Shown here one piece after another: positions 3,693 through 27,150 of a stretch of 64,000 bases of DNA (its first letter is position 1; the number at the start of each line of letters is the position of its first letter). The translations under genes were made by a program, and so were the position numbers. The stretch spans positions 66,511 through 130,510 of the forward strand of contig CAIOGO010000006.1 in the NCBI GenBank assembly GCA_903857865.1, in the 5' to 3' direction. Origin of the DNA: an uncultured bacterium (lineage in GTDB: Bacteria; Bipolaricaulota; Bipolaricaulia; UBA7950; UBA9294). The notes under the pieces were generated by a model that was not told where the DNA came from, searched no databases, and saw only the letters and a list, made by a program, of their open reading frames with translations.

Positions 3693-4712
3693 CTACTCGT
3701 CGACCGGCTGCGCCAACGTGAGGTTCACGATCGCCGTACCCTGGAGCCCCTGGTCGTCGTAGACGTAGAGCCGCACGACGAAGGTGCGCGACGGGGAAGA
3801 CAGCTCGTAGACGTGGACCACTTCGAGGTCGCTCGTCTCGACCAGCGTCCTACCGTCCCCGAAGTCCCACGCATAGTAGTCGAGCGAGTGCCCGGCGTCG
3901 GCCGACGAACCCCGCGGATCGAAGGAGACCTCGTACAGCGTAGGAGTCGACGCTGGACTCGGGGAGTGGTAGAGAACGAGCGGATCCGACATCGTGAACT
4001 CGGCGACCGGATCGTCGCCGCTCGTACTGCCCTCCGGCACGATGACGATGATGCGCACCTGTTCGGTATCGACCGCGCTGTCCGAGTTCCACACAAACAG
4101 CGTGGCCGTGAACTCCTCGGTGGCCTCAGGCGTGTAGGTGTGCCGCACCTCGGCCCCGTTCGACGTCGCGCCGTCGCCGAAGTCCCAGCGATATTGGGCG
4201 ATCGTCCCCGTGCCCGCCGTCGACGTTCGCCCGTCGAACGCCACGGATAGCGGCGTCATCCCAATGAAACGGTCGACCGAGATGCGTGCCACCGGAGACC
4301 CGGTCCCACTACTGCCGCCGCTCGACGGCTGAACCTCGATCGTTTGCGCCGTCTCATCGCTCGCCCCACCGCCGTCGGTGACGCGTAACGTCACGGTGAA
4401 CACCTTCGCCTCGGTGAGCGCGAGGAACGTGTGGTGCGCCAATGCCTCCGACGCCGTTGCTCCCGCATCGCCGAAGTCCCACTCGTACGTCCTGATCTCG
4501 CCCTCCGGGTCGACCGACTCGGACGCGTCGAACGTCACCACGAGCGGCGAGTTGCCGGCGAGCGGCGTCGCCGTGATCACAGCCGTCGGCGCCTGGTTGA
4601 ACAGCATGCAGCCGCAGAAGAAGAGGAGCGATGAGACAAGCGCTCCCAGGTACCCCACCCTCATCCATCGAGCAGCTTGACTCACCGTCTCCTCCTCTGC
4701 CTGCTGAACCAC
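3693..4712 (-). CDS. PKD-domain lipoprotein with three PKD repeats
   Basis: Lipobox LLFFCGC. Repeats are VTFDASESVDPEGEIRTYEWDFGDAG, AFDGRTSTAG..YRWDFGDGA and YYAWDFGDGR. The start is either GTG at 4712, 6 nt after the upstream stop, or ATG at 4664. Confidence 0.75.
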   Translation of the reverse strand: MVQQAEEETVSQAARWMRVGYLGALVSSLLFFCGCMLFNQAPTAVITATPLAGNSPLVVTFDASESVDPEGEIRTYEWDFGDAGATASEALAHHTFLALTEAKVFTVTLRVTDGGGASDETAQTIEVQPSSGGSSGTGSPVARISVDRFIGMTPLSVAFDGRTSTAGTGTIAQYRWDFGDGATSNGAEVRHTYTPEATEEFTATLFVWNSDSAVDTEQVRIIVIVPEGSTSGDDPVAEFTMSDPLVLYHSPSPASTPTLYEVSFDPRGSSADAGHSLDYYAWDFGDGRTLVETSDLEVVHVYELSSPSRTFVVRLYVYDDQGLQGTAIVNLTLAQPVDE

Positions 4713-4718
4713 TCAGGC

Positions 4719-6332
4719 CTACAGATCGCTCGGGCCTTCGACGCCCGCCTTCAGCGTTACCGTGCGCGAGAAAGGTGCCGACTCGTAGCCTAGCCAGTCC
4801 TCGGCCGTCATGGTGATCGTCTTGATCGTGCCGTCGACGGTCACATTCTGGTAGACGTGGATCATGATAGCGTCGCCGCCAAACGGCATCGCCGTCAGGG
4901 TGGCGTAGCTGTACTGATCGAGCGCTGAACCGTCGCCCCAGTTGACGTACAGGTACCGAATCCCCCAACCCTTGTTGTTCGGCCAGTTTGGGAACCACGT
5001 CGGGGGATTCGCCGCCCAGGTCTGACCTTCCGGATCGTACGAGAAGTTGTGGTCATCGTAGCCCGTCGGTGCGCTCGGCGTCGTCGACGAAATCGCAGCG
5101 CCCGTGGCCGTCTGGAGATCGTGCTGGTTCTTCGTCCCGTCAAGACCGAACCAGCGGACGTCGGGGATCTTCCTCGAGCGGATGACCACGGGCACGTTCG
5201 CGCTGAACGCCGGATATGGGGTGGTACTGATCTCTTGCAGGTCGCCGTAGACGACGTCGTCGGCCTGCCAGATCGCTCCTGCGGCGTACGCCGCAGCCTC
5301 GCTGGCATAGACCTCCACTCCCGGTCCTGCCGTGTCCCCGCCCGGGGGGTTCGCGATGTCGAACCCGGCAATCGGCCGATGGTTGTACGCCTTCACCGTC
5401 TTCGTGATCGAGTCGCTCGCACCCTCGTTGTCGAGGACGAGGAGGGTGACGGAGAAGACCTCGCTCGAGGTGTCGGTCGTGTAGACATGAGTCTGGCTCG
5501 TCGCGTTGATGCTCGACGTCGCAGAAGTGTCGCCGAACGACCACGTGTAGAGGATCAACGTGCGGCCGTTGGCCGCTTCGGAGTCCGCCGGGTCGAACGC
5601 CACCTGCAGCGGCGCGACGCCGAGGCTGTCGGTCTGGATGTCGAACCGCGCGCTTGGGGCGCCCGCGGCCGGCGTTCCGCCATCGCCGCTCGTCGAGACC
5701 GACACGGTCTTCGACGCCGTGGCCGTCTTCCCGTCCGACGCACGCACGAGCAAGGTCACCGTGAACGACTGACTCCCCGAACTGAAGAAGGTGTGGGTCA
5801 CGACCTTGCCGAACCCGTTGCCGCCATCGCCGAACGTCCACTCGTAGGCCGCGATCGTCCCGGCCGCGTACGACGAGCCGGACGCGTCAAACGTGACGTT
5901 GACCGGCGATGTGCCCGACGTCGGGCTCGCGGTGAAACTTGCGCTGGGACCCGCCGGCTCGGCCGCGGTGACGTAGACCGTCTTCGCCGCCTGGTCCGCC
6001 GCGTCCCAGTTGTCGGTCACGGTGAGGATGATGGTGTACGTTCCCACCGCGGTGTACGTGTGACCCACCGACCTTCCGGTCCCCACAGCGCCGTCGCCGA
6101 AGTCCCACGAGTAGGTCTTGATCTCGCCATCCGAATCGCTCGACGGCGCGCCGCTCAAGGTCACCGCGAACGGCACCGGCCCCGTCGTGCTCGGACCGAT
6201 GGTGAACCCCGCCACTGGGAGCTTGTTGAACAAGGCGCAGCTTGCCAGAGCCAGCACCAACACGCTCATCCCAACGACGCAACTGAGAAGAATCAGCGTG
6301 CGCGTCGACATCTTCCGTACCCCACGTTTCAC
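4719..6332 (-). CDS. PKD-domain lipoprotein with four to five PKD repeats
   Basis: Lipobox ALASCALFNK. Repeated ...TFDASGS...Y.WDFGDG... modules are present. Confidence 0.8.
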   Translation of the reverse strand: MKRGVRKMSTRTLILLSCVVGMSVLVLALASCALFNKLPVAGFTIGPSTTGPVPFAVTLSGAPSSDSDGEIKTYSWDFGDGAVGTGRSVGHTYTAVGTYTIILTVTDNWDAADQAAKTVYVTAAEPAGPSASFTASPTSGTSPVNVTFDASGSSYAAGTIAAYEWTFGDGGNGFGKVVTHTFFSSGSQSFTVTLLVRASDGKTATASKTVSVSTSGDGGTPAAGAPSARFDIQTDSLGVAPLQVAFDPADSEAANGRTLILYTWSFGDTSATSSINATSQTHVYTTDTSSEVFSVTLLVLDNEGASDSITKTVKAYNHRPIAGFDIANPPGGDTAGPGVEVYASEAAAYAAGAIWQADDVVYGDLQEISTTPYPAFSANVPVVIRSRKIPDVRWFGLDGTKNQHDLQTATGAAISSTTPSAPTGYDDHNFSYDPEGQTWAANPPTWFPNWPNNKGWGIRYLYVNWGDGSALDQYSYATLTAMPFGGDAIMIHVYQNVTVDGTIKTITMTAEDWLGYESAPFSRTVTLKAGVEGPSDL

Positions 6333-6574: not shown

Positions 6575-9500
6575 TCATCGACGGATGAACACAGTTCCCT
6601 TGCCGCTGAACGTGTCCGTCCCATCCGTCGCCGTCATCAGGTAGATGTAGGCACCGTTGGCGAGGGGCTGACAGTCGCTCGCTGTGCCGTCCCAAACGAT
6701 CTGCGTCACGTTTCCCAACTCGTTCGCCCATACCAGATGACCTGCGAGGTCGTAGACCTCGACCGACATCACCGAGGCAATGCCGGTTCCGTTGTATCCA
6801 AACGTTACAGCGCCGGCCGACGGACTCGGCCCCGCGTAGAAGCTCGTGACATCCAGCTTGCTCGCGACGATCAGGATCGTGTCACTCGACGTGTCCGTAG
6901 GATCCGTGGGATCCTTGTACGTCGCCGTGATCGTGGCCCCTGCAGCCAAGTTGAGATCGAGGCCCGTGGTCACGAAGGCATTCTCGGCCCACCCTGCGGG
7001 GTGGGCTAGAGAGAATGCTTGTCCGTCGATCGTGACGGCATTCTCTAGCAGGGATGCGCCGGCGTGGGACGGGTCGACGACCTTCACGTACACGAGATCC
7101 GTGTCCGTGTAGCTTGTCACCGCCGCCCCCGTCACGTCCACGAACGCCGTCGTCGACGCCTGGGACGGAGGAGTGCCGCCACCGCCAATGGCCACCTTAA
7201 TCTGGATTATCGCCGAGTCGCTGTGGTTCGACGGATCCTGGTAGAAGGCCACCACCGTATCGCCCGGCAGCGCGCCAAGCGTCGGCACGCACGTGTACAC
7301 GTTCACGAGATCGACGCAGATGACCGACACGAAGTCTCCCGTGGTGACGCCCGTCTCCAGGAGGTCGAGCGCCGCCCAGAAACCGCTCCGCGGGTTCAAG
7401 ACGTAGATCTTCGCGTTGTCGTTGTCGTCGGTGGCTGGCGTTGTGTCGAAGATGTTCGTATCCCCTAGCAGGGAGTTCACAAAGTGGCCGTAGGTGTCGT
7501 CGGGTTCCGGGCAGTGCCAGTAGTTGTACGCCTCGGGCCCGAACGGCAGATTCTGTCCACCGTCCCAGAACCCGTCAATGCGCTCCCGACGGAGGATGTC
7601 CTCGTTCTGATCCGGGTCCACCACTTCGATGAACACGCAGTCCAAGTTCACGTACCCGTTCACGCGATTGCCCTGCCGGTCGAGGAAGTACATCGTGACC
7701 GACTGGCCGTTATAGACCTGCGTGTCGCCAATCGACATCAGGTCGAACGACACGTCATTCCCCACGCGGACACGATCGATCCGCGGTCCCGAGTAGGCCG
7801 TGCTCGTGTCGGAATCGCCTAGGCCGATCATGCCTTGGAGGCCGTCCACGTAATCCACGTCGTTGTATCGGACGTAGATGTCGTCCTCGTTGAACGCCTC
7901 GAGCTTCCAGTTGTCGAGCACAAGCTGGTATCCACCCATCAAGCCGGCAACTCCCACGCCGAGAGCATCCCAGACCGGCAGGAGCTCCATTCCCGCGTTC
8001 GAGAAGAAGACCGGCGAGTTCGAGCTCGTCTCGTCGAGCGGCCAGAACTCCCCGTCGTCCTCATCGTGCGGATCGCAGATATGAACCACGACCTGCTCCG
8101 GGCAGCACGAGTCGACGTTCGCGTTCGCGTCGATCACCTGCACGTACACCGGGTCGCGACCGATCCAGAAGAGCTTCTTGTCCTGGCGCGTCGCATCCGT
8201 GAACGACACGATCGAGTGCATCTTTTCCTCGATGTACGCCGCGTCCAGCTTGAAGTCGTCTTCGTCGTTCGGGTCAAGGTAGTAGGCCACGAGCACGTCG
8301 CGAACGTCCAGGCTGTCGAACCCAAGATCGACGAGGAGCGAGTTCAGGTTCAGCTGGAACACGCCCGTATTCGGACCCGTCTCCTGCGCGTAGAACGAGA
8401 CGGCCGTCACCCCGTTCGCGCTTGCCGTGTCAAACAGGGTCCCGTGATAGACAGGATTGAAGACTCCAGCCTTCGGGTATTGGATGTAGTAGCGCCCATC
8501 CTTCGCTCCCAGCGTGCCGTAGTCGTTCTTCTCGGAATTGTAGATGTTGAACCAGCGAATCGGACGGTTGGTATAGTCGGTGGTCGGTGGAAGCGCCGGA
8601 TCCTGCGCCACCGTGTAGTTCCCAGCGATGCCGCCCGTGCGCTTCAGCATACAGAAGTTGTTGGGGCTGTCGCCCGTCGTCAAGGCTGGGTCGTCAGCGG
8701 AGTTCGTCGGGTTCCATGACCCTGGGTTCACCAGGATGAATACCGGGACAACCTCCACCTCGTTGCAGTTCAAGTTTTCGTCTGCATCGGTGACGATGAT
8801 CGTCGCCGCTTCGTTCCCATCCTTGTAGATCTCTCGGTCCCACGCGATCGTCGCCTCGGTGTCGATGACCTTCATCATCGCCGTCGCGACGTCTGTGTCG
8901 TCGTTCGGGTCCTGATACATCCCAATGAGCGTGTCCATGTTCTCGAACCGGCCGACCAGCCAAGAAGCGGGAGAAGCCGTGTCGCGATTCCCATTCAGGC
9001 TGGAGGGAAGGACATACGCCGATAGCGGCAGGTCGATGTACCCGGACCCAAACGCTGCGGAGTTCCCTGTGACCGCGCCGACCCAGTGGAGCCAATCGCC
9101 GTCCGCGTTGCTCCCACCCTTCGTCTCGTTGTGCAGATCGGCGTAGAAGTAGTTGCCCCACTTGAACTCATCCGGCGGCGACGACGGCGTGTCGACGACG
9201 TGCGTTCCCTTCCACGGCTCGCCGGAGGCGAAGCTCTCGCGGGTCCCAATCTGAAACGCGTGGCTGCTGACGAAGAGCCCCGTGTCGGCGCCCGTCTCTT
9301 CGAGATAGTCTTCGGCAAGCGACCCGGGATTGCCAGGGAAGTGCCCCTTGTACGGGACGTAGTCTTCGTCGTCGTACGGATCGGACCAGCCCTTTCCAGT
9401 TAGGTCAGCGTAGCTCTTCCAGACGATGTAGGCGCCCGTCTTCGGGTCCATGATCTTGACGTCGGTCCAGATCTTGTCGCGCACGTCGCAGTCGATGTTC

Positions 9501-9673
9501 TCGTCCGTGTCGTGAATGACAATCCAAACCGAGTTCCCTTCCTGGACGTTCGTCACTCGGTTCTGCCCGTTCTTGTCGGACGCGAAGTACATCTCCGCGT
9601 TCGAGGCAGCCAGACCGAGCGACGCAATGACCAGGAAGAGGACGCCTACCCACACTGCCCTACGCATCCTCAT
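6575..9673 (-). CDS. Large secreted protein, paralog A, with a T9SS-type (FlgD-Ig-like) C-terminal sorting domain
   Basis: Start ATG at 9673 (MRMRRAVWVGVLFLVIASLGLAASNA signal peptide, GGGAGG Shine-Dalgarno). The C-terminus reads ...SVEVYDLAGHLVWANE...WDGT...NGAYIYLMTATDG...GKGTVFIRR, which matches the Por-secretion C-terminal domain pattern. About 60 % identical to the 10974..14057 protein. Confidence 0.8.
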   Translation of the reverse strand: MRMRRAVWVGVLFLVIASLGLAASNAEMYFASDKNGQNRVTNVQEGNSVWIVIHDTDENIDCDVRDKIWTDVKIMDPKTGAYIVWKSYADLTGKGWSDPYDDEDYVPYKGHFPGNPGSLAEDYLEETGADTGLFVSSHAFQIGTRESFASGEPWKGTHVVDTPSSPPDEFKWGNYFYADLHNETKGGSNADGDWLHWVGAVTGNSAAFGSGYIDLPLSAYVLPSSLNGNRDTASPASWLVGRFENMDTLIGMYQDPNDDTDVATAMMKVIDTEATIAWDREIYKDGNEAATIIVTDADENLNCNEVEVVPVFILVNPGSWNPTNSADDPALTTGDSPNNFCMLKRTGGIAGNYTVAQDPALPPTTDYTNRPIRWFNIYNSEKNDYGTLGAKDGRYYIQYPKAGVFNPVYHGTLFDTASANGVTAVSFYAQETGPNTGVFQLNLNSLLVDLGFDSLDVRDVLVAYYLDPNDEDDFKLDAAYIEEKMHSIVSFTDATRQDKKLFWIGRDPVYVQVIDANANVDSCCPEQVVVHICDPHDEDDGEFWPLDETSSNSPVFFSNAGMELLPVWDALGVGVAGLMGGYQLVLDNWKLEAFNEDDIYVRYNDVDYVDGLQGMIGLGDSDTSTAYSGPRIDRVRVGNDVSFDLMSIGDTQVYNGQSVTMYFLDRQGNRVNGYVNLDCVFIEVVDPDQNEDILRRERIDGFWDGGQNLPFGPEAYNYWHCPEPDDTYGHFVNSLLGDTNIFDTTPATDDNDNAKIYVLNPRSGFWAALDLLETGVTTGDFVSVICVDLVNVYTCVPTLGALPGDTVVAFYQDPSNHSDSAIIQIKVAIGGGGTPPSQASTTAFVDVTGAAVTSYTDTDLVYVKVVDPSHAGASLLENAVTIDGQAFSLAHPAGWAENAFVTTGLDLNLAAGATITATYKDPTDPTDTSSDTILIVASKLDVTSFYAGPSPSAGAVTFGYNGTGIASVMSVEVYDLAGHLVWANELGNVTQIVWDGTASDCQPLANGAYIYLMTATDGTDTFSGKGTVFIRR

Positions 9674-9872
9674 CGCAACCTCCCGCGTTTCAGAGCAAGC
9701 CATCACCGGGGCCGAGCCCCGTCCGTACCCTGCTCGACCGTCACCACCATGTCGATTCAATCATCGTCAGGATAGGCGGCGGCGAGGCCGCCGTCCAGTC
9801 AACGCGCACGGCGCCGCGCCCCGCGCGCGGCGCGCGGCGCCCCGCACGTCCGTGTCCACGAGTGCGTACAAA

Positions 9873-10973: not shown

Positions 10974-13900
10974 TTACCGGTTGATGAACAACGTTCCCTT
11001 ACCATTGAACGTGTCCGTCCCGTCCGTCGCCGTCACTAGGTAGATGTACGCGCCGTTCGCCACAAACGCGCCGCCGTCGTCCTTACCGTTCCAGACGATC
11101 TTCGTCACGTTCGCCAGCTCGCTCGCCCACACCACGTGCCCTGCGAGGTCGTATACCGTCACCGACATCACCGAAGCAATGCCGCTTCCCTTGTATGCAA
11201 ACGTCACATCGCCAGCCGACGGGTTCGGCCCTGCGTAGAAGCTCGTAACATCAAGCTTGCTCGCGATGATCGTGATCGTGTCGGTCGACGTATCGGTCGG
11301 ATCCGTCGGATCCTTGTACGTCGCCGTGATCGACGTTCCCGCCGTCAGGTTGAGATCCAGTCCGGTCGTGATGAACGTGTCCGTTGGCGCACCGGCGAGC
11401 GGCGCAAGAGCGTACGTTACCGTACCGATCGTCACCGCACCCGCCAGCGTCGTCGCCCCGGCGTGAGACGGGTCGACGACCTTCACGTACACCAGGTCCG
11501 CGTCCGTGTAGTTCACCACAGCGGCGCCCGTTGCATTCGTGAATGTCGTCGTCGACGACTGCGACGCAGGCGTAGTGCCGCCACCAATGCCCACCTTAAC
11601 CTGGATCATGGCCGAATCCGAGTGGTTCGACGGATCCTGGTAGTAGGCCACAACCGTATCGCCCGGCAGCGCGCCGAGCGTCGGCACGCACGTGTACACG
11701 TTCACCAGGTCGACGCAGATGACCGACACGAAGTCTCCCGTGGTCACGCCCGTCTCAAGAAGATCGAGCGCCGCCCACTGGCCACTCCGCGGGTTCAACA
11801 CGTACACCTTGGGATACGAGTACTGATAACTGTTGTACTGAGCGTCTCTGGCGCTAGCGTCAGAGAGTCTGCTGAAGATGTTCGTGTCGCCGAACAGCGC
11901 GTTCAGCGGGTTGATGTACGTCCGAGTCCAGTCGCAGACGAACCCGTTCAAGGCCCGGGGTCCGAACGGCATGTTCTGGTTCTTGTCCCAGAACCCGTCG
12001 ATGCGCTCGCGGCGCAGCGTGTCCTCGTTCTGATCCGCGTCCACCACTTCGATGAACACGCAGTCCGAGTTCACGTAGCCAGACACGCGGTTGCCCTGCC
12101 GGTCGAGGAAGTACATGGTGACCGACTGGCCGTTGTACACCTGCGTGTCCGCGATCTCCATCAGGTCGAACGACACATCGTTCGCCACGCGGATCCGATC
12201 GATCTTCGGCGGGAACGCGGTGCTGGCCGTGCTCGCAAACGTTTCGTCGCCGAGACCGCCCATGCCTTCAAGGCCGGTCACATAGTACACGTCGTTGTAC
12301 TGCACGTAGACGTGGTCCTCGTTGAACACCTCGAGCTTCCAGTTGTCAAGATTCAGCTGGTAGCCGCCCGTCTTGGACGGCTCATTCCCGATGCCCATTG
12401 CGTCCCACACCGGCAGAAGTTCCGTCCCGGCGTTGGAGAAGAAGACGGGCGAGTTCGAACTCGTCTCGTCGAGGATCAACCACTCGGCGTCGTCCCACTC
12501 GTGCGGATCGCAGATCGAGACAACAACCTGCTCCGGGCAGCACGGGTCAACGTTCGCGTTCGCGTCGATGACCTGCACGTACACCGGGTCGCGGCCGATC
12601 CAGAAGAGCTCCTTGTCCTGGCGCGTCGCGTCGGTGAACGACGTGATCGAGTGCTGCTTCTCCTCGATGTACGACACGCCGACTTGGAAGTCGTCCTCGT
12701 CGTTCGGGTCAATGTAGTAGGCCACGAGCACGTCGCGCACGCTCAGACTGTAGAACCCAAGATCCACGAGGATCGAGTTCAGGTTGAGCTGGAACACGCC
12801 CGTGTTCACGCCCGTCTCCTGCGCGTAGAACATCACTTCCGTGACGCCGTTCGTAGCGACGGTGTCGAAGAACGTGACGTTGCTCTGCGACTGGACCGGG
12901 TACTGCATGTAGTAGTTCCCAGCCATCGCAGGCCTTGTCGGGAACGTCAGGCCGCTGTTGTAGATGTTGTACCAGGCAATCGGCGCCGGCTTTGGCGCCG
13001 CAGTTGTCACAACTCGCTCGGTACCGTCGAGCTCAACGCCGCCGGTGCGCTTGAGGGCGCAGAACCCGGTCGGGCTGTCCCAATCACTCGCGGTCTGCAC
13101 GGGGTTCCACGACTCGGGGTTCACGATGATGAACACCGGCACGTACTCGATCTCGTTGCAGTTCAAGTTCTCGTCCGCATCGGTCACCGTGATGGTGGCC
13201 GACCCGTTCGCGTCCTTGTAGATTTGCTGGTCCCACGTGACCGACCCCTTCGTGTCGATGATCTTCATCATCGCCGTCGCGACGTCGGTCGGATCGTTCT
13301 GGTCAACGACCATGCCGATCAGCGTGTCCATGTTCTCGAACCGGCCGTGCTCCTTCGTGACCCATGACGGAAGGGTGGTCAGAGCAGTAGGAAGAGCCAC
13401 GGTCTGTTTGCCACGGATTCCGTTCACGTACTCCCACTGTCCGAAGTTGGTGTTGTTTCGAGTGCTGTCGAACGGGCCATGGAAACCGTTCTTCGCCGAG
13501 AGGACTCCCGCGAAGTCGAGGCCGACCCAGTGAGTGTTCAACTCATCCACTCGGTAGTCGAGCCGCGTGCCGATCTGCATCGGCTGGCTGCTCACGAACA
13601 GACCCGTGTCGGCGCCCGTCTCCTCAAAGTAGACGATGTCCGCGGGTACGTCCTTCCCGGGATTGTGCCCAGGCTGGTAGTGGCCGTACGCGGCCACATC
13701 ATTGCCAGCTCTCGCCAGAGCAAACGCAAAGTTGATGTACGCGCCGGTCTTGGGATCGAACACCTTCGCGTCCGTCCAGAACTTGTCGCGCACGTCGCAG
13801 TCAATGTTCTCGTCCGGATCGTGTACGACCATCCAGACCTGGCTTCCTTCTTGCACATTCGTAACCCTTGTCTGGCCGTTCTTGTCGCTCGAGAAATACA

Positions 13901-14057
13901 GCTCCGAGTTCGTCGCGGCGGCAGAAAGGGCGAAGAACGCCATAACCAGAATCGTTACGACGCTCAGTACTCCCAGTCTCTTCTTCAACGTCCTACCTCC
14001 TTCGTAGTTCGAAGATCTCGCTTGTGTTCTTTCGCTTCGTTCATCTTGTTCGGTCAT
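10974..14057 (-). CDS. Large secreted protein, paralog B, with a T9SS-type C-terminal sorting domain
   Basis: Start ATG at 14057 (MTEQDE...LKKRLGVLSVVTILVMAFFALSAAATN signal peptide). The C-terminus reads ...SVTVYDLAGHVVWASE...WNGKDDGG..NGAYIYLVTATDG...GKGTLFINR. Long blocks are near-identical to paralog A, for example FYAQETG.NTGVFQLNLNS.LVDLGF... Confidence 0.8.
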   Translation of the reverse strand: MTEQDERSERTQARSSNYEGGRTLKKRLGVLSVVTILVMAFFALSAAATNSELYFSSDKNGQTRVTNVQEGSQVWMVVHDPDENIDCDVRDKFWTDAKVFDPKTGAYINFAFALARAGNDVAAYGHYQPGHNPGKDVPADIVYFEETGADTGLFVSSQPMQIGTRLDYRVDELNTHWVGLDFAGVLSAKNGFHGPFDSTRNNTNFGQWEYVNGIRGKQTVALPTALTTLPSWVTKEHGRFENMDTLIGMVVDQNDPTDVATAMMKIIDTKGSVTWDQQIYKDANGSATITVTDADENLNCNEIEYVPVFIIVNPESWNPVQTASDWDSPTGFCALKRTGGVELDGTERVVTTAAPKPAPIAWYNIYNSGLTFPTRPAMAGNYYMQYPVQSQSNVTFFDTVATNGVTEVMFYAQETGVNTGVFQLNLNSILVDLGFYSLSVRDVLVAYYIDPNDEDDFQVGVSYIEEKQHSITSFTDATRQDKELFWIGRDPVYVQVIDANANVDPCCPEQVVVSICDPHEWDDAEWLILDETSSNSPVFFSNAGTELLPVWDAMGIGNEPSKTGGYQLNLDNWKLEVFNEDHVYVQYNDVYYVTGLEGMGGLGDETFASTASTAFPPKIDRIRVANDVSFDLMEIADTQVYNGQSVTMYFLDRQGNRVSGYVNSDCVFIEVVDADQNEDTLRRERIDGFWDKNQNMPFGPRALNGFVCDWTRTYINPLNALFGDTNIFSRLSDASARDAQYNSYQYSYPKVYVLNPRSGQWAALDLLETGVTTGDFVSVICVDLVNVYTCVPTLGALPGDTVVAYYQDPSNHSDSAMIQVKVGIGGGTTPASQSSTTTFTNATGAAVVNYTDADLVYVKVVDPSHAGATTLAGAVTIGTVTYALAPLAGAPTDTFITTGLDLNLTAGTSITATYKDPTDPTDTSTDTITIIASKLDVTSFYAGPNPSAGDVTFAYKGSGIASVMSVTVYDLAGHVVWASELANVTKIVWNGKDDGGAFVANGAYIYLVTATDGTDTFNGKGTLFINR

Positions 14058-14619
14058 CGGAGGCACCCCCTGCACTCTTCCTTCACGCCTCCACCCCGCT
14101 TGTAGGGACACACGGTTCCACACGTTCCGCCCCACCACCTCCAGAGGGAAGCTCTATGGTCGGCTTCCGCTCGGCCTCGCCGAGTCCAAGGAACAAACGC
14201 TGCCCAGTGTAGCAGCAACGCCAAGTCGCATTCTCAATGACCAGCGGAAGTGGTTGCCCACCCCCCCATTTCGTGAGTCGCTCGATCTTACAGCACGCCC
14301 GCAACGTCTGTCAAGCGCGATCAGGACTGAGCCATCTCCCCATCGTACAGCACCCGGCATGGCGGGCGTCAACGTCTTCCGTGCCGCGTGGGATGAGCAC
14401 AATCCAGGACTCACCATGCGTGAACCACCTCCCGGTCGGTGTTTCTTTCCAGATCGCCCCAGGCTACAGCGTCTCGGGCCCCTCAACCTGTACGGTGGGC
14501 GCTCGCGACCTGCCTCCGGTCCGCCTCGGTGGGGACACGCGTCCGTGATCCGAACTACGCGGTCCGCGGCCGGCAGGGCGACGCCCTCGCCTTGACACGA
14601 TCGGCAAGGAGTCGATATC

Positions 14620-17677: not shown

Positions 17678-19108
17678 ATGCCTACGCCGAGGATCAGGCG
17701 ACCTCGGTACACCACCACCTTGACGGACGCGGCCCGCTTTGGCTACCCTCAGCGGAGGGTGCGGCTTTCCGAGTACGGGGTCGCACGGGGGTGGGGTGTG
17801 CGTCCGGTCGCCGGTCTTCTACGGTTCAAGCTCCGAAAGACGACTGACGAGATCGACTCCGTGCTCACTCATCTTGTCCGCGACGTTGGGCGTTGGGTGC
17901 CCTTCTACCGAGATCTGTTCCGCAACGCGGGGATCGACGTCGCCCGCTTCCGCGGCGCCAGGGATCTTGCGACGCTCCCTCGCTCCTCCAAGGATGCCTT
18001 CCAGGAATCCCCGGAGCGGGACTGCCTGCGACAGGGTCGTGACCCTCGACGGTGTGCGCGGACGAGCACGAGCGGCTCAACCGGCGCGCCCCTCACCCTC
18101 TACCTGAGCCACCCGGAGCTCTACTTCCGCCGCTATAGCGTGCTGACAGGTCTTCGCCACTACACGCCGCTTCGTTTTCCCGTGCGCGTGGCCGACGTGG
18201 GCTCCATGGTCCCTCACGGCGGGAGAAGCGCCGAGCAGAGCTTGGGGATTGTGCACCTCCTTCGCATCCCGGGAAACATGCCCTTGGCAGAGCAGCGTGC
18301 CGCGCTGCTCAGGCATCGGCCGACGATTCTACAGGGGTATCCAACGTGCCTGGAGCTCCTCGCCGAGAGCCTCTCCGAGAGCGAAGCAAGACAGGTTCGC
18401 CCTCTCCTCGTCGCCTGCCGCGGCGAGCAGCTGCGTCAAGGCACCCGTGACCTCCTCAAGCAGACCTTTCGCACACACATCGCGAGTCTCTACAACTGCG
18501 AGGAAGTGGGGAACCTCGCGTGGGAATGCCCTGACCGTGCCGACCGATTCCACGTGAACCGCGACACCTGTGTGCTCGAGGTGCTTGACAGCCATGGAAG
18601 TACGGCCGACGGGCAGGGGGACGTCTTCGTGACCAACCTGTACAACCGAACGATGCCGTTTCTGCGTTACCGCCTCGATGACCGGGCGCGGCTCGTTGGC
18701 CCCGCAGAGCGCACGTGCTCGTGCGGAGCGGCCGGGCCTTGGCTCGAGGACCTCAGCGGCGGCGAGGACGACTTCGTGTCGTTCCCCGACGGGCGGCGCA
18801 TGTCCCCGCTTCTTCTCTCGAATGCTCTCTTCGACGGCTTCCGCGCTCCCGGTGACCCGCATCGGCTCAGCCCTTCCGTTCGTCGTTACCAGATCATCCA
18901 GGAGGAGGATTACTCACTTCGCGTCATCCTCGACTGGCGAGGACCTTTCGACGCGGTCGTGTGGCGGCAGATTGCCTCCGAAATGAATCGGGCGAGTCAG
19001 GGCCTACGCTGCACGGTGGAGAGAAGCGCGGCATTCGAGCTCACGGCGGCAGGCAAGTTCAAAGAGGTCCTATCCAGGGCGCCGGTCGGAGCAGCGCAGA
19101 GATTCTAG
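17678..19108 (+). CDS. Adenylate-forming enzyme of the phenylacetate-CoA ligase (PaaK) / coenzyme F390 synthetase / CapK family
   Basis: AMP-binding motif TSGSTGAPLTLYLSH. Family-typical N-terminus ...WVPFYRDLFRNAGIDVARFRGARDLATLP.. Overall length and C-terminal domain fit. The true start is probably downstream of 17678; the first about 30 codons overlap the tRNA-repeat region. Confidence 0.65.
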   Translation: MPTPRIRRPRYTTTLTDAARFGYPQRRVRLSEYGVARGWGVRPVAGLLRFKLRKTTDEIDSVLTHLVRDVGRWVPFYRDLFRNAGIDVARFRGARDLATLPRSSKDAFQESPERDCLRQGRDPRRCARTSTSGSTGAPLTLYLSHPELYFRRYSVLTGLRHYTPLRFPVRVADVGSMVPHGGRSAEQSLGIVHLLRIPGNMPLAEQRAALLRHRPTILQGYPTCLELLAESLSESEARQVRPLLVACRGEQLRQGTRDLLKQTFRTHIASLYNCEEVGNLAWECPDRADRFHVNRDTCVLEVLDSHGSTADGQGDVFVTNLYNRTMPFLRYRLDDRARLVGPAERTCSCGAAGPWLEDLSGGEDDFVSFPDGRRMSPLLLSNALFDGFRAPGDPHRLSPSVRRYQIIQEEDYSLRVILDWRGPFDAVVWRQIASEMNRASQGLRCTVERSAAFELTAAGKFKEVLSRAPVGAAQRF

Positions 19109-19954: not shown

Positions 19955-20593
19955 ATGAAGCGGACGTTGCGGTGGCTTGGGGTGTTGGCGCTGATCGGGG
20001 CAGTGGTAGGACTCGCAGGGTGCGCGATCGGGGACTCGCCGCCGCAGGCCGCCTTCACTTGGACTCCTTCGGACCCGATTGCCAGAGCGGACGTTCAGTT
20101 CACGGACGATTCGACCGACCAGGGCGGCTGGTTCAGCGCCGGCGGCATCACGGCGTGGAATTGGGACTTCGGCGATTCGGACACGTCTTCGTCCCAGAAC
20201 CCGAAGCACCAGTATGCCAAGGGCGACACCTACGACGTCCGACTCACGGTGACCGATGCCAGCGGCGGTACGGCGACGAAAGAGAAGACGATCACGGTGA
20301 GCCCGAGCCTCGACGGCACCTGGCGAGGGACATGGGATAGTTGCGCGAACTTCTTCGACCTGACGCTTGAGCTCAATCAGTCCGCGACCGGAGGGATCGG
20401 CGGCATCATGTACATCGCCACCCAGGCGTACCCTCTCAACGGTGCGTCACTTGCCGGAAGCCAGGTGTCGATCAGCCTGCTGAATGGACTCATTCTTCAG
20501 GGAACGCTGAGCGCCGACGAGCGCAGCATGTCCGGCCAGTGGTCATTCCAAGGGAACACGGGCTGCACGTGGTCGGTGAGTCTGCGCGACTAA
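19955..20593 (+). CDS. PKD-domain lipoprotein
   Basis: MKRTLRWLGVLALIGAVVGLAGC lipobox. PKD signature VQFTDDSTDQGG...WNWDFGDSDTSS...YDVRLTVTDASGG. Confidence 0.75.
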   Translation: MKRTLRWLGVLALIGAVVGLAGCAIGDSPPQAAFTWTPSDPIARADVQFTDDSTDQGGWFSAGGITAWNWDFGDSDTSSSQNPKHQYAKGDTYDVRLTVTDASGGTATKEKTITVSPSLDGTWRGTWDSCANFFDLTLELNQSATGGIGGIMYIATQAYPLNGASLAGSQVSISLLNGLILQGTLSADERSMSGQWSFQGNTGCTWSVSLRD

Positions 20594-21020: not shown

Positions 21021-21445
21021 GGCGCGGCGCGCTCTCGTCAACAGAGCGCGTAAGCATCCTCTCGTCAAACCCGGATGCGGCGCGCTTTCGTTAGCAGAGC
21101 GCGTTGGCATCCTCGATTCAGGCCCGGGGCGCGGCGCGCTCTTGTCAACAGAGCGCGTTAGCACCCTCTCCTTGGGCCCGGGGCGCGGCGCGCTTTCGTT
21201 AACAGAGCGCGTTAGCACCCTCTTCGTGGAACCGGGCGCGGCGCGCTCTTGTCAACAGAGCGCGTTAGCACCCTCTCCTTGGGCCCGGGGCGCGGCGCGC
21301 TTTCGTTAACAGAGCGCGTAAGCATCCTCTCGCCAAACCCGGATGCGGCGCGCTCTCCTTAGAACCGCGCGTAAGCATCCTCTCGTCAAACCCGGATGCA
21401 GTCCGTTCTCTCGTTAGACCCGAACGGGCCGCGCTCTCCTGAGAG
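21021..21445. repeat. Tandem array of about 7.5 units of 51-56 bp, each containing the palindrome CGCGCTCT-(C/T)GT(C/T)AAC-AGAGCGCG
   Basis: Units start at 21021, 21076, 21127, 21181, 21234, 21288, 21344 and 21397. Units 3 and 5 are identical and others differ by a few substitutions. The array lies between the GRE-activase 3' end and the csp upstream region. Confidence 0.85.
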
Positions 21446-21457
21446 CCACCCGCGGTG

Positions 21458-22429
21458 CTAGAAGGGCGTCTCCGCGCCCACGTAGCACTGAAGCCCGGCA
21501 TCGGAGAAGAGCCGCCGATGGCCCGCCATCTGGTCGCCGGTCGGAGGCTGGGCCTGCGCATGCGCGTACTCCAACCCAAGCTGCGCGTACTTTGACTCAG
21601 CCATTCGGTGGAAGGGTAGAAGGTTCACCTCGATGAGCTGGAGCTCGGCCAGGAATCGAGCTGTGGCACGAAGGTTCTCCGGTGAATCGTTGAACCCCGG
21701 AACGATCGGGATCCGAACGACCACGCGTGTCTCACGCGACGACTGCGCCAAGTTCACAAGGTTGGCAAGGATCTGCTCGTTCCCGACGCCGGTGCCGCAG
21801 TGATGAGCCGCACCGTCCATGTGCTTCAAGTCGACGAACAGCCAGTCTGTGCGACGCGCGACGTCCAATACGAGCTGCTGGTCGGCGTGTGCAGAGGTCT
21901 CGACGACCGTGTGGATGTACGCCTCACGACAGGCGTCGAGTGCCGCCAGCAGGAACTCCGGTTGACTCGTCGGCTCGCCCCCGCTGAAGGTGACGCCGCC
22001 CTCCGGCCCCCAGTAGTCGCGATCCCGTCCCAGGGTTCGCATCAACTCGCGCACGGACATCCGGCGCCCCGACACCTCCAGCGCGCTGTTCAAACAAGCA
22101 GAGACGCAGCTTTGCGCATCGCACGTCGCGCAGAGCGTTCGATCGAAGATGGGGGGAAGCGGTGCGGCGGGGTCGACTCGGATCGCACCATACGGACAGG
22201 CAGCGACGCACGGAGTGCCGTCGGACCGGCAGCGGGACGCTCGGACCATCAGCCGTGGTCTCGGGAGGAGCCCCTCCGGATTGGCACACCATGAGCAACG
22301 CAACGGGCACCCGCTCATGAAGACTGTGGTCCGGCACCCCGGACCGTCGTGCACCGAGTGTGCCTGGATGTCGAAGATCAATCCCTCCACGGGCGCGCTC
22401 AGCCGTTCCTCCATTCGAACCACTCGCAC
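21458..22429 (-). CDS. Glycyl-radical-enzyme activating enzyme (radical SAM, with an extra ferredoxin-like Cys cluster domain)
   Basis: Radical-SAM motif CPLRCSWC. GHDGPGCRTTVF N-terminus. Additional clusters CRSDGTPCVAACPYG and CATCDAQSCVSAC. This architecture is typical of activases for non-PFL glycyl-radical enzymes. Confidence 0.85.
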   Translation of the reverse strand: MRVVRMEERLSAPVEGLIFDIQAHSVHDGPGCRTTVFMSGCPLRCSWCANPEGLLPRPRLMVRASRCRSDGTPCVAACPYGAIRVDPAAPLPPIFDRTLCATCDAQSCVSACLNSALEVSGRRMSVRELMRTLGRDRDYWGPEGGVTFSGGEPTSQPEFLLAALDACREAYIHTVVETSAHADQQLVLDVARRTDWLFVDLKHMDGAAHHCGTGVGNEQILANLVNLAQSSRETRVVVRIPIVPGFNDSPENLRATARFLAELQLIEVNLLPFHRMAESKYAQLGLEYAHAQAQPPTGDQMAGHRRLFSDAGLQCYVGAETPF

Positions 22430-22668
22430 GTCACGGCAACGAGGTCCGGGTACGTCATCGGCCGGTCCGGCGTGGCCGAGCAGGCGCCCGTGTACTCTTC
22501 TTCACTCGGCGAGTACAGCCTGCACTCGGCGCACCGCGGCAGGCGGTCGAACGAGGGGCAGGCGTCGTCGTCTGCGCGGACGGTCCCTTTCGTCACGTGG
22601 CAGATTCCCTTGACCACATCGATGGGGGCGTAGTTCCGGCAGTACATGTGCCTAGACGAGGCGCTCAC
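22399..22668 (-). CDS. Cys-rich small protein, candidate HpdC-like Fe-S small subunit of the glycyl-radical enzyme
   Basis: 89 aa. GTG start at 22668 overlaps the large-subunit stop as GTGA. A GGGGGTG Shine-Dalgarno is present. Potential ligands are spaced H7-x2-C10-x12-C23-x13-C37-x8-C46-x2-C49-x13-C63-x17-C81. It sits between the large subunit and the activase, the same arrangement as hpdB-hpdC-hpdA. Confidence 0.5.
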
Positions 22669-25381
22669 GGTTGCACCCCCTGGTACTCCGTGCGGGCGAT
22701 GATTTCATCCTGAATCGGCTTTCCAATCTCCACCCAGTACTGCGTGAACCCGGCCACGCGAACAAGGAGGTCGCGATACTCCTCCGGGTGCTCCTGAGCG
22801 TGCTTCAGGATCCTCGAGTCCACCACGTTGTACTGGATGTGAAAGCCGCCCTTACGCATGTAGGACCGCGTCAATTCGAGCAGCTTCTTGGTTCCCGCGC
22901 GACCGTGGATTGCACTCGGGTGGATCTTCAGATTCAGCTGGGAGTTCTGGGACTGGGCGTGATCCCAACACGTCGCCGAGGAGAAGAGGGCGTACGGTCC
23001 TTGCCGGTCAGTTCCAGGGTAAGCGGACATGGAGGCATCGGCGAACGTTGTGCCGGCCAGGCGCCCGTCGGGCGCGGCCATCGTGACGGCTCCCATCGGC
23101 GCGTGCGTGGAGACCGAAATCTGGCAAGCATAGTAAGGCCGCGCGTTGAGCGACTCGTACTCCCTGCACTTGGCGCAGAACCAGTCTTCCCACTCCTTGA
23201 GGATGTCGTCGACGTACGGATTGTCGTTTCCGTACTTCGGGGCGGTGAGGCACTCGACGTGCGTCCGGTCGTGCTCGGTGCTCTCCCCGCGCTTCTCCTG
23301 GGACGAGAGCGAGAAGGAACCCACCTCGTCGGCCGTCTTGAAGCCGAAGTTGTCCGCGAGGGCCTTCCGCAGTCCTGCGAGGGAGATGAATCCCCTGTCG
23401 TAGACGAGGGACTTCAGCGCAGCGAGGCTGTTGATCAGGTTGATCGTCCCGCACGTCTCGACGTTGTGGGTCGCGTTGTACCGGTATCCGAGTTCGTTGA
23501 TGAGATGCCCGGACTCGAGGCAGTCCGGCTTGAGGAGCGAGTTGAAGATGGCCATGTTGTTCTTGCGCCAGACATCGTGCTGGATGTTGTTTGCGAGCGC
23601 GAGCACCTCAACGGCCCTTGCGAAGTACGCCTTGACCTGATCGAACACTTCCTCGTACGAGGCGAGCGTCCGGCCGTGCGGGGGGAACACGCGGAGCCCC
23701 GTCCGCTGATCGGTGCCGTCGAAGAGAACGAGCTCCAGGATCTTGGGAAGGGAGAGGAAGTGAACGCCGACGCTCGTTGGTTGTCCCGAACCGCCTGGGA
23801 TCCAGTACGACTGGCCGTTAAGTACAACGGGCATCCAGGAACACGGAGACGTCTCGAGGCAACCGCCGATGGCGATCGCCCGCGCTTCTTCCAGATCCAT
23901 GCCCTCGGGACCGTATTGGTCCATGAGGAATTCGATCCCCGTCCGATTGTTCACGACGGCCGGATAGCCCGTCCCCGTCTTGATGCACTCCATGGCCTTG
24001 AGGAGGAACGACTCCGGCAGCTTGTCGTCGTAGAGGAGAGTCAGGGTGGGCTGTGTCGATGCGCAGGTCATCGCCGCTTTGATGATCAGCTCCTCGAGAC
24101 GATTGTTCGCCGGGCTCCCGTTTCGATCGAGACCACCGATGCTGAGGTTGTTGAACGTGTTCCCCGACAGGACGCCCCCGACGACGCCCATCGAAGCGAA
24201 GCAGTCGAGGCAGGTGTACTTGATGCGGAGGCACTCGAACAGCTCGAGGGCCTTCTGCTCGTCGAGGCGGCCGGCCGCGATGTCCTGCTCGTACCATGGC
24301 CAGAGGATCTGCCCGAGGCGGCCGGGTGACAGTCCGGAGATGACGTCCTCATTCAGCACGGCAACGTGCACTGTCCAACTGAGTTGCAGAGCCTCGCGGA
24401 ACGTCCGCGGTGGATGATGGGCGATCCACTCGAGGCACTCGGCGGTCTCGGCGTACTCAGTGCCTGCGCCGACTCCCTTTCCATCGCCTCGAGTCGGCGC
24501 GCCTCCTGTGCGTAGTTCTGAATCCACGCCTGGATTCCCCGAAGGACGTGACTCACCGCTTCGTAGTTGTAGAGGCGGTTCATGCCGGTGAGCCCGTCGC
24601 CGTCGGGGTGCCCCGCCACCTCGCCCTTCTTCCGCTCCGCCATCGAGATCAGTTCGTCGAACCCGAACTGCAGCGGGTAGTAGTAGTTGACGACCTCGCG
24701 CCCCTGCGGCAGCGTGTAGCCCGAATCGAACATGCACGTGACGGACTTCATCAGGGCTTCTTTGATCTCGTACCCGGGAACCATCTGCTCGTACTTGTGC
24801 CCCACATCGTCAACGGATCGGTCCTCCCAGGCGTGGGCCACTCGGAGCATCGCCGGAACTTCCTCTTTTCGGATCCCGAATTTCCCTGCGATCGACACGA
24901 CGGGACCGAAGCTCTTCGTCACGTTGCCCCCACCCGACCCGAAGGTAGAAACCGCGTCCGCGCTCGCGCTGCCTCGCGCCAGCGCCTCCTGATAGAGCTG
25001 GTTCTCCGCCGCCATATAGTAGCCCTCAGACAGCCACGGCATGGGGAAGGAGCCGCGGTAGTGGTAGGTCTTCCCCATGACGAGGAGTTCGCCGGGGAAG
25101 ATCGTCGGCGTCAGGTGCCGAAACGCGGACTCGAGGGCCAGGGCTCGGCGGACGACGGGGACCTCGTTGTCAAGACGCATGTAGGTCCGGGTGTACCAGT
25201 GCGGGAACTCGTTCGTCGCGGAGGAAAGGGCGTCGTAGTACAGGTCGCGCAAGCGCTGGACGCGGGGGAACGGTTTGCCGACGACTTCGCGCGGCATGGG
25301 CTCCGACGGCGGCTTGCCCATCGCTTGGTACTCCAAGTGGGCGTCTGCCTGAGCAAGGATGTCCGTCAGTTTGCGCGGCAT
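22665..25381 (-). CDS. Glycyl-radical enzyme large subunit (HpdB-like, 1,2-eliminase/decarboxylase clade), with an apparent frameshift near 24465-24475
   Basis: Two overlapping ORFs (24353..25381 and 22665..24737) together span about 905 aa. Motifs: [16 protein letters not shown], a Cys loop GGCLETSPC, and glycyl-radical motif [11 protein letters not shown] near the C-terminus. The frames switch within ...EARRLEAME / [11 protein letters not shown]... at a GGAAAGGGAG run. Confidence 0.8.
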
Positions 25382-25520: not shown

Positions 25521-25762
25521 CGCGCGCTCCTTTGTCAGAACCGAGCGCGTAGGCGCGCTCCTTTGTCAGAACCGAGCGCGTAGGCGCGCTCCTTTGTCAG
25601 AACCGAGCGCGTTTCGCTGGACAGGGCGCGTTCTCTCGTCAACAGAGCGCGGGCGCGTTCTCTCGATAGAACCGAACGCGGCGCGCCTACGTAGAAGAGC
25701 GCGTGGTGGACGGGACGCGTTCTCTCCACAGAACCGAACGCGTTCCGCTGGACCGAGCGTCG
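25521..25762. repeat. Second tandem array of the same palindromic repeat family (3 x 31-bp GCGCGCTCCTTTGTCAGAACCGAGCGCGTAG, then about four diverged units)
   Basis: It contains GGCGCGTTCTCTCGTCAACAGAGCGCG, the same core as the 21-kb array, and TAGAACCGAACGCG variants. It lies in the divergent region between the GRE operon and the MATE gene. Confidence 0.8.
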
Positions 25763-25785: not shown

Positions 25786-27150
25786 ATGAGGGAGGGCAAC
25801 GTGGGAGAGTCCGGCAGCAGGCTGACGACCGGGCAGGTGTTCCGCACGTGGTGGCCGCTCGCCGCAAGCTGGGTCCTCATGGCGCTCGAGGGGCCGCTGC
25901 AGACCATCTTCGTCGCCCGCTTGGCCGACCCGAAGATCCACCTCGCCGCGTTCGGCAGCGTCGTCCTTCCCATCGCCATGCTCATCGAGGCGCCGATCGT
26001 CATGCTCTTGTCGGCTTCGACGACGCTCTGCGTCGACCGCGACGCCTATCGCAAGATCCGCCGGTTCATGCACGGGTTGTCCGCCGCTCTGACGGCGCTT
26101 CACGCCATCATCGCGCTCACGCCTCTGTACACGCTTCTCGTCGTCAGCGTCCTCCACGCGCCACCCGAGATCGTCGAGCCCGGCCGCATCGGGTTGATCC
26201 TCACGATCCCATGGACCTGGTCTATCGCTTACCGCCGCTTCAATCAGGGCGTCCTCATCCGCTTCGGACGCTCCCTGACCGTGGGAGTCGGCACGTTCAT
26301 CAGGCTCTGCGCCAACGGCATTGTGCTCACCCTTGGGTTCACCCTGCTCAAGGTCCCCGGCACGACGCTCGCCGCCCTCGCGATCACCGCCGGCGTGGTC
26401 AGCGAGGCCGCGTATGTCGGTCTGTGCGTCCGCCCGGTCGTACGCGACCGACTCCCGCAGGTGTCCGAGGCGCAACCTCTGAGCTACCACGCCTTCCTCC
26501 GCTTCTACGTGCCGCTCTCACTGACATCGCTTGTCCTGATGGGTATACGGCCTGTGCTGAGCGCTGCCGTTGGCCGCATGCCGAATGCCCTCGACTCGCT
26601 TGCAGTGCTTCCCGTGATCAACGGGCTCGTCTTCCTCTTCCGCAGCGTCGGGGCGGCGTACAACGAGGTCGTCATCGCCCACCTCGATCGCCCTGGATCG
26701 TCGATCGCCCTGGCGCGGTTCGCCCGTTGGCTCGCCGTCGCCACGACGCTTGGCCTCGTCACGATCACCGTGACGCCGCTGTCGGGAGTGTGGTTCGGCT
26801 CCATCTCCGGACTCGACGGCTCGCTGATGGACTTGGCGCGATCCAGCCTATGGCTCACGCTCCTCCTCCCCGGCCTCGCGGCAGCCCAGAGCTTCCTGCA
26901 GGGGATCATCCTGCACAGCAGGCGCACGCGAAGCATCACGGAAGCGGTCTTTGTCTACCTCGTGGCGAGCGTGGTCGTGCTGTGGGTCGGCGTGGCGTGG
27001 GGAGGGACGAGCGGCGCGTTCGTCGCTCTTGCCTCGCTGGCCGTCGGAGAGATCTTTCGCACGGCGTGGTTCGTCTGGCGGAGCCGCGAGCCGCGGCGCG
27101 TCCTGCGCGAGCGGGACCGCGGCGAACAGTCGGCTACCGCGGAGGCGTAG
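25786..27150 (+). CDS. MATE-family efflux transporter
   Basis: About 455 aa with roughly 12 predicted hydrophobic segments. N-terminal VFRTWWPLAASWVLMALEGPLQTIFVARL resembles NorM/MATE. ATG at 25786 is the first start after the repeat array. Confidence 0.7.
   Translation: MREGNVGESGSRLTTGQVFRTWWPLAASWVLMALEGPLQTIFVARLADPKIHLAAFGSVVLPIAMLIEAPIVMLLSASTTLCVDRDAYRKIRRFMHGLSAALTALHAIIALTPLYTLLVVSVLHAPPEIVEPGRIGLILTIPWTWSIAYRRFNQGVLIRFGRSLTVGVGTFIRLCANGIVLTLGFTLLKVPGTTLAALAITAGVVSEAAYVGLCVRPVVRDRLPQVSEAQPLSYHAFLRFYVPLSLTSLVLMGIRPVLSAAVGRMPNALDSLAVLPVINGLVFLFRSVGAAYNEVVIAHLDRPGSSIALARFARWLAVATTLGLVTITVTPLSGVWFGSISGLDGSLMDLARSSLWLTLLLPGLAAAQSFLQGIILHSRRTRSITEAVFVYLVASVVVLWVGVAWGGTSGAFVALASLAVGEIFRTAWFVWRSREPRRVLRERDRGEQSATAEA

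Follow-up and report, generated by a model that had tools for sequence, protein, structure and literature searches.

A probable hpdBCA operon for 4-hydroxyphenylacetate decarboxylase, with a disrupted large-subunit gene, in an uncultivated Candidatus Bipolaricaulota bacterium

The stretch of DNA considered here, a window of 64,000 nucleotides on contig CAIOGO010000006.1 of an uncultured bacterium belonging to the Candidatus Bipolaricaulota, carries three co-oriented genes in tandem on its minus strand, running from position 25381 to 21458. The first of these, hpdB, corresponds to the large (alpha) subunit of 4-hydroxyphenylacetate decarboxylase (HPAD), a glycyl-radical enzyme. Its 5' part (24464..25381, codons 1-306) starts with an ATG at 25381, with the ribosome-binding motif GAGGAGG at 25392-25386, 4 nt 5' of the start codon. 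One T is absent between bases 24463 and 24464, and the 3' part (22665..24463) holds the remnant of codon 307 and codons 308-905, ending with the stop codon TGA at 22667-22665. The second gene, hpdC (22399..22668), has a GTG start and encodes an 89-aa HPAD small (gamma) subunit, while hpdA (21458..22414, ATG at 22414) encodes the radical S-adenosylmethionine (SAM) enzyme that activates HPAD, a protein of 318 aa. An hpdB-hpdC-hpdA-like operon in tandem on the minus strand had been proposed from the letters of the DNA, and this holds, with all three products giving their best matches on HPAD models. The same large-small-activase order is directly visible in the window and in all 30 related genome loci whose length suffices to include the three genes. 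We consider the locus to be a canonical hpdBCA (csdBCA) operon for HPAD in a Candidatus Bipolaricaulota genome, with a probability of roughly 0.88.

Membership of the HPAD family is a direct result of the profile comparisons. The clade of the large subunit was assigned by the scores of curated hidden Markov models together with diagnostic residues, and HpdB residues are given here in the numbering of the intact protein, as encoded by L041, a record of the same strain. This intact allele scores 1507.3 bits against NF033715, the model of the HPAD large subunit (cut-off 1150), and covers profile positions 2-900 of 901; the two fragments in the window give 441.9 bits (profile 2-305, equal to residues 3-306) and 1046.5 bits (profile 307-900). 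The indoleacetate decarboxylase (IAD) model NF033718 yields 643.8 bits, which does not pass its cut-off of 1100, and the hydroxyproline, sulfopropanediol, choline and PFL-type models yield 280-390 bits, also below their cut-offs. Clustering with the dehydratase or lyase clades, which would have contradicted the original prediction, is thus not what these scores indicate. The hpdB product further matches the Pfam families PFL-like and Gly_radical. Among proteins of known structure, the repaired large subunit is most similar to the HPAD of Clostridium scatologenes (PDB 2Y8N_A; 985.7 bits, E = 1.8e-295, 50.1% identity over 861 residues), and the next PDB match, choline TMA-lyase, follows at 303 bits. 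The structural comparison was made through this solved enzyme, at 50% identity.

The active site was mapped with the residues listed by Martins et al. (quoted in PMC4979209), which were transferred through an alignment of 35 sequences. HpdB has the loop RVAG878FTQ, which is the glycyl loop of HPAD (PMC13450708), and G878 corresponds to G873 of the C. scatologenes enzyme. The catalytic pair C503 and E505 in the motif GGCLE is found as C508 and E510, and the phenol-binding residues H536 and E637 as H541 and E642. Likewise, R223 is represented by R228, S344 and G345 by S349 and G350, V399 and L400 by V404 and L405, and F405 by F410. The mapped columns (R223, S344, G345, V399, L400, F405, C503, E505, H536, E637 and G873) are invariant in 35/35 sequences. 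The published list of pocket residues (PMC4979209) comprises R223, S344, G345, F405, G532, H536 and E637, of which E637 and H536 are specific for the para-hydroxyl group, and Glu637 has been proposed to deprotonate this group (PMC13450708). At the position of Glu637, IAD has a leucine (PMC6181972), and phenylacetate decarboxylase (PAD) is without the glutamate (PMC13232127). Because the equivalents of both Glu637 and His536 are present in HpdB, the predicted product narrows to p-cresol. The earlier proposal of an arylacetate decarboxylase forming p-cresol, toluene or skatole is therefore retained as far as the reaction type is concerned, whereas toluene and skatole can be dropped as likely products.

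The GTG start codon of hpdC is composed of the last G of the preceding sense codon and the TG of the hpdB stop, so that the bases GTGA are common to both genes. As had been suggested, this start (GTG 22668) has a Shine-Dalgarno sequence of its own, AGGGGG at 22681-22676, followed by a 7-nt spacer. The product contains cysteines at positions 10, 23, 37, 46, 49, 63 and 81 and histidines at positions 7 and 24. The seven cysteines and H7 had been located correctly in the original prediction, but its count of a single histidine missed H24, which lies outside the ligand positions. Against the NCBIfam equivalog NF033716 for the HPAD small subunit the protein scores 73.7 bits (cut-off 50, E = 1.2e-20), and it also matches the Pfam families 4HPAD_g_N and HPIP_like; HPAD gamma models are the only ones that it matches. 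A lack of similarity to HpdC-type subunits, which would likewise have spoken against the original prediction, is therefore not what is observed. In the alignment with the small subunit of the solved enzyme, H7, C10, C23, C37, C46, C49, C63 and C81 coincide with all eight ligands of 2Y8N_B, which are H3, C6, C19, C36, C45, C48, C62 and C80. These residues are thus the predicted ligands of two [4Fe-4S] clusters, H7/C10/C23/C37 for one and C46/C49/C63/C81 for the other, an arrangement that agrees with the scheme described for HPAD gamma subunits, with one site of three Cys and one His and one site of four Cys (PMC13450708).

Conservation differs between the two sites. Among the 33 aligned small subunits the C-terminal four cysteines are invariant (33/33), the three cysteines of the N-terminal cluster occur in 28, and the position of the His ligand is occupied by His in 17, Cys in eight and Asn in three. 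All four N-terminal ligands are lost in loci L016, L018, L019, L020 and L038, where Y/T/D/P stand for H/C/C/C and the C-terminal 4-Cys site is kept. Judged from these substitutions, the proteins look like a gamma variant with one cluster; they come from metagenome-assembled genomes (MAGs) labelled as delta-proteobacterial, Halodesulfovibrio, Oceanispirochaeta, Oligoflexia and Proteobacteria. In L016, L018 and L020, hpdC and hpdA are moreover separated by about 1.6 kb of inserted DNA.

The small gene had been regarded as unannotated and easily missed, which is incorrect, as public gene calls on identical DNA include hpdC, with 4HPAD_g_N matches. These calls differ in their start: the gene is 89 aa long (GTG) in some assemblies and 82 aa (ATG at M8) in others. 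The start region lies at 22645-22668 in the window, and the corresponding small-subunit call in L041 spans 2915-3163. The 82-aa version drops His7, the predicted N-terminal cluster ligand. The His ligand is retained in the five nearest relatives, most close relatives are called at 89 aa, and in the close relative P0003, which reads RHVHC, the His is not followed by a Met, so that the start must lie upstream of this residue. For these reasons the 89-aa product with the GTG start is the better call, and gene callers that use the internal ATG remove a predicted ligand from the protein.

The activase gene hpdA overlaps the 3' end of hpdC by 16 nt, and public assemblies of identical DNA also call it at 318 aa. 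That its product would be an activase with a ferredoxin domain was correctly foreseen: it has the radical-SAM motif C36-x3-C40-x2-C43 (CX3CX2C) and a Cys-rich ferredoxin-like insert with Cys 62, 69, 73, 95, 98, 103 and 107, and both the motif cysteines and the seven of the insert are invariant in 30/30 homologues. Pfam matches are to Radical_SAM and Fer4_12. The HPAD activase model NF033717 is the top match, with 384.3 bits over profile positions 3-311 of 311, and the IAD activase model follows 93 bits lower, at 291 bits (cut-off 425).

It is useful to compare the operon with known glycyl-radical systems. The closest are CsdBC/CsdA of C. scatologenes (PDB 2Y8N, 2YAJ) and HpdBCA of Clostridioides difficile, which have the same B-C-A order. 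With the C. scatologenes enzyme the window protein shares the RVAGFTQ loop, the Cys/Glu catalytic pair, the His/Glu phenol pair and 50% large-subunit identity (861 residues), and with the clostridial systems also the His+3Cys and 4Cys ligand spacing of the small subunit and the ferredoxin-like insert of the activase. There are differences as well: the host is a high-GC (~65%) uncultivated environmental member of the Bipolaricaulota and not a Firmicute from gut or sludge, its small subunit is without the 3-residue 'GEG' insert that the C. scatologenes protein has before the third ligand, its residue at the Gly532 position is Ser, its activase scores below the equivalog cut-off and its large-subunit gene is frameshifted. 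IAD (from Olsenella) and PAD (PhdB) belong to the same subclass of glycyl-radical arylacetate decarboxylases, and IAD forms the sister clade of HPAD (PMC6181972, PMC13232127). Both lack the small subunit that hpdC encodes in the window; IAD has Leu where HPAD has Glu637 and the window has Glu, and the score of the window protein on the IAD model is 643.8 bits against a cut-off of 1100. PhdB is set apart by its published description, as it has neither Glu637 nor a small subunit (PMC13232127, PMC13450708) and the window has both. The arylacetate decarboxylase AAD (PDB 7E7L) also converts 4-hydroxyphenylacetate to p-cresol, but works without an accessory subunit and differs in its active site (PMC13450708), and it gives only 240 bits with the window protein as compared to 986 for HPAD.

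The original prediction treated HPAD as the only glycyl-radical enzyme with a small [4Fe-4S] subunit. [quoted passage not shown] These enzymes add hydrocarbons to fumarate. Their small subunits number two or three, and each holds one cluster or one Fe; the scores of the alpha chains with the window large subunit are only 159-172 bits against 986 for HPAD, and the window has one small open reading frame, of the HPAD gamma type.

The operon is irregular in the frameshift of hpdB, which can be read directly from the DNA. The gene spans 2717 nt (25381..22665), a length not divisible by 3, and no continuous open reading frame of about 905 codons exists in the window. The single large frame of this length that had been described is in fact split by the missing T at 24463/24464; it is intact, at 905 aa, in L041. 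Translation from the ATG gives a 342-aa open reading frame (25381..24353), in which codon 306 is followed by 36 out-of-frame codons up to a stop at 24353, after which a second frame continues to 22665. By the profile matches, the break falls after residue 306 in the first frame and ahead of residue 93 in the second, and a single profile position is absent. Around codon 307 the record L041 reads CAG TGC ACT (Q-C-T) and the window CAGGCACT, and with the T restored, as in L041, hpdB encodes 905 aa. As written, the hpdB copy of the window cannot make the enzyme.

Several records allow this position to be checked. In the 5,562 nt surrounding the operon, L041 (JGI 3300023311) and the window have 0 mismatches and differ by this gap only; the full 14,104 nt that they share add 1 mismatch and no further gap. 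The T is present in L041, L042 (JGI 3300022650) and L043, and eight more distant homologues aligned at the DNA level have one base more than the window at the site. A 564-aa protein (P0015) on a 155,824-nt NCBI/ENA contig equals window 24359..22665 exactly, and apparently the deposited source record carries the same frameshift, with only this fragment called. When the 342-aa N-terminal product and P0015 were looked up as exact sequences, no other record with the frameshift was found, and scans of metagenome_contigs, a collection without this strain, gave 0 matches both for a pattern across the indel and for the flanking 41-mer. As the same strain has the intact 905-aa gene in other assemblies, the frameshift is private to this record, and it reflects either an error in the consensus or a null allele that truly exists.

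A second, independent lesion occurs in L043 (JGI 3300022653, Ga0236337_1109576), a record of the same near-clonal strain, where at position 464, equivalent to about 24221 in the window, AAG has become TAG in hpdB (LRIKYTC to LRI*YTC). This record has 2 mismatches to the window in 4.4 kb, one of which forms the TAG codon, and its gene is called as 154 + 508 aa. L042 and a 278,660-nt ENA/NCBI contig with a 905-aa call are intact at both lesion sites.

If the deletion is real, hpdB would be a pseudogene or a null allele segregating in the sampled population, the organism would not be a p-cresol maker, and such loss may recur. We would give this somewhat less than an even chance. The assembly is not generally prone to indels, as the independent L041 record shows just the one mismatch and one gap in 14,104 nt and the lengths of the neighbouring genes agree with the 278-kb contig; the gap site is not a homopolymer; and the nonsense lesion of L043 hits the same gene of the same strain independently. 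On the other hand, neither lesion occurs in three other assemblies of this strain (L041, L042 and the 278,660-nt contig), and most of the listed members of the 90% cluster are full-length proteins of 905 aa, which indicates that hpdB is under purifying selection in the lineage. The downstream genes hpdC and hpdA are undamaged, and the lesions are two only, noticed after the fact. That both the deletion and the L043 nonsense codon are real alleles, so that hpdB is repeatedly inactivated in nature, seems to us rather unlikely.

A functional bypass of the frameshift, by programmed -1 ribosomal frameshifting or by transcriptional slippage, would also yield full-length HpdB. Apart from the fact that the shift needed is -1 (or +2), nothing argues for it: the sequence GCG CAG GCA CTG has no slippery X XXY YYZ heptamer or homopolymer, and a single frame encodes the protein in identical strains and in all of the more than 30 homologues that cover this position. 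The chance that such a bypass operates is negligible, and programmed frameshifting was ruled out on the absence of a slippery site and the in-frame copies in identical strains.

Assignment of the operon to HPAD has to be weighed against a number of points. The hpdB copy in the window is disrupted. HpdA scores 36 bits under the curated NF033717 cut-off of 420 and does not pass it; the activase of L006, a Bipolaricaulota relative annotated by PGAP, is likewise under this cut-off with 386.7 bits. All substrate-binding residues are conserved with one exception, as the position of C. scatologenes Gly532 is Ser in the window HpdB, but Ser occurs in 33/35 aligned sequences, from which the C. scatologenes enzyme is the outlier at this position. 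No gene for formation of 4-hydroxyphenylacetate from tyrosine and no dedicated transporter was found within the 64-kb window. Finally, substrate and product are predicted for this environmental clade from residue conservation.

Clostridial HPAD also accepts 3,4-dihydroxyphenylacetate. It may thus be asked whether the window encodes an HPAD-like arylacetate decarboxylase for a different substrate, such as 3,4-dihydroxyphenylacetate or a para-hydroxylated arylacetate released by breakdown of lignin or peptides in sediment, instead of 4-hydroxyphenylacetate derived from tyrosine. The identity to the characterised enzyme is only 50%, the host lineage is environmental and not from the gut, and tyrosine-fermentation genes are not found nearby, all of which would fit such a role. 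Nevertheless, we regard it as improbable, as the large subunit scores well above the curated equivalog cut-off and every listed substrate-contact residue is conserved save G532S, which is itself the majority state.

With 4-hydroxyphenylacetate as the substrate and p-cresol as the product, a catalytic mechanism and quaternary structure can be proposed from the homologous enzymes of C. scatologenes and C. difficile, following the HPAD mechanism and the role of the gamma subunit as given in PMC13450708. The radical-SAM activase HpdA, which has an additional Fe-S domain of the ferredoxin-like type, would reductively cleave S-adenosylmethionine and abstract a hydrogen from Gly878 of HpdB. The resulting Gly878 radical would generate a thiyl radical on Cys508, which would oxidise the carboxylate of 4-hydroxyphenylacetate while Glu642 accepts the phenol proton, in a Kolbe-type decarboxylation. 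After loss of CO2, the p-hydroxybenzyl radical would regain a hydrogen from Cys508, Glu510 would re-protonate Cys508, and p-cresol would be released. HpdC would act as the gamma subunit with two [4Fe-4S] clusters. In characterised HPAD this subunit lies over a hydrophobic patch on its large partner and is required for a soluble and active alpha4-gamma4 hetero-octamer (PMC13450708), and the Bipolaricaulota enzyme may well be assembled in the same way.

The closest genomes are Candidatus Bipolaricaulota MAGs, with 85-89% amino acid identity in HpdB, some of which are labelled Thermotogota or Thermotogae. The gene order methyltransferase, CoaE, membrane protein, hpdBCA and cold-shock protein (CSD) is common to the window, L006 and L027, which indicates inheritance of the operon within the lineage rather than a recent insertion. 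In the same 90%-identity cluster NCBI already uses the name '4-hydroxyphenylacetate decarboxylase large subunit [Candidatus Bipolaricaulota bacterium]' for members, and relatives of the small subunit are named '4-hydroxyphenylacetate decarboxylase small subunit' by both NCBI and JGI. Related hpdBCA loci occur in Bipolaricaulota, Acidobacteriota, Bacteroidota, Fermentibacteria, Elusimicrobia, a Methanomicrobiales MAG and others, and in every one that is long enough to show gene order this is B-C-A or B-C-MFS-A. The additional gene, present between hpdC and hpdA in L015, L016, L018 and L020 and absent from the window operon, encodes an MFS transporter in both loci tested (L015 8161-9462; L020 8178-9506) and may serve for substrate import. 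Complete hpdBCA sets are present in L022 and L021, from a MAG labelled Methanomicrobiales archaeon (HpdB 60% identity) and from the enterobacterium Dryocola clanedunensis (63%), respectively. Their occurrence suggests wide horizontal spread, with the archaeal case possibly due to mis-binning. The presence of HPAD homologues in environmental MAGs was remarked earlier (PMC6258724), and our literature search found no paper that links HPAD with Bipolaricaulota.

Arrays of G+C-rich hairpin repeats bracket the operon at 21021-21396 and 25522-25686. The 3' array lies directly past the hpdA stop and consists of seven copies of a 53/54-nt unit with the cores GCGCGCTCTCGTCAACAGAGCGCG and GCATCC..GGATGC. 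The 5' array, between the hpdB start and a divergent membrane-protein gene, has three perfect 31-nt copies of GCGCGCTCCTTTGTCAGAACCGAGCGCGTAG and two degenerate 27-nt copies. In the whole 64 kb the hairpin motif has 12 matches, 11 of which lie in these arrays, all in one orientation. As RNA in the hpdBCA sense, the 3' array folds better than its shuffles (z = -5.8), whereas the 5' region does not (z = -1.0). None of the syntenic loci L006, L027 and L032 of Bipolaricaulota has the arrays, and an Rfam search of the window returned one tRNA only, with no match for the hairpins. Possible roles are those of REP-like elements, of a 3' mRNA stabiliser or terminator, or of operator sites.

The divergent gene at 25786-27150 (+) encodes a 454-aa polytopic membrane protein without a match in Pfam, NCBIfam or PDB. 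It has more than 2,500 homologues; those with a named source are Bipolaricaulota 'hypothetical protein' entries, one JGI record among the relatives is named Na+-driven multidrug efflux pump, and a few carry PF07260. The protein probably belongs to a MATE/MOP-like transporter family for which there is no model. We considered it as a part of the operon system and rejected this, since it occurs lineage-wide in Bipolaricaulota and is absent beside hpdBCA in L032. At 17678-19108 (+), 2.3 kb from the operon, a 476-aa adenylate-forming enzyme is encoded that distantly resembles PaaK (phenylacetate-CoA ligase), F390-synthetase and DVU_1553, with 72.9 bits at best against a cut-off of 300; a link to arylacetate metabolism would be a guess. 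Large secreted-type proteins that contain PKD and FlgD-Ig domains form a cluster in the window (3693-6332, 6575-9760, 10974-14138 and 19955-20593). Two of its open reading frames are about 1,050 aa long, the second without a Pfam match; they are paralogous, as positions 12709-14104 of L041 correspond to window 7059-8418 at 83-85% identity. Pfam and NCBIfam searches on 25 neighbouring open reading frames gave housekeeping or unknown genes only and no functional partner.

This is an ordinary HPAD system, all three genes of which are already named by curated models, and extension of a well-characterised enzyme, studied mainly in gut bacteria, to an uncultivated environmental phylum in itself matters little. 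Its non-routine features, the private frameshift with the L043 nonsense allele and the bracketing hairpin arrays, leave the functional call unchanged. The frameshift does have practical consequences, as metabolic reconstruction from this MAG could miss or over-call p-cresol formation. The distribution of the operon suggests that formation of p-cresol from 4-hydroxyphenylacetate is widespread in anoxic sediments and lakes. If both hpdB lesions were real, they would represent a segregating loss-of-function polymorphism in an environmental p-cresol producer, in which p-cresol formation might, for example, be costly or self-toxic and be left to neighbouring cells.

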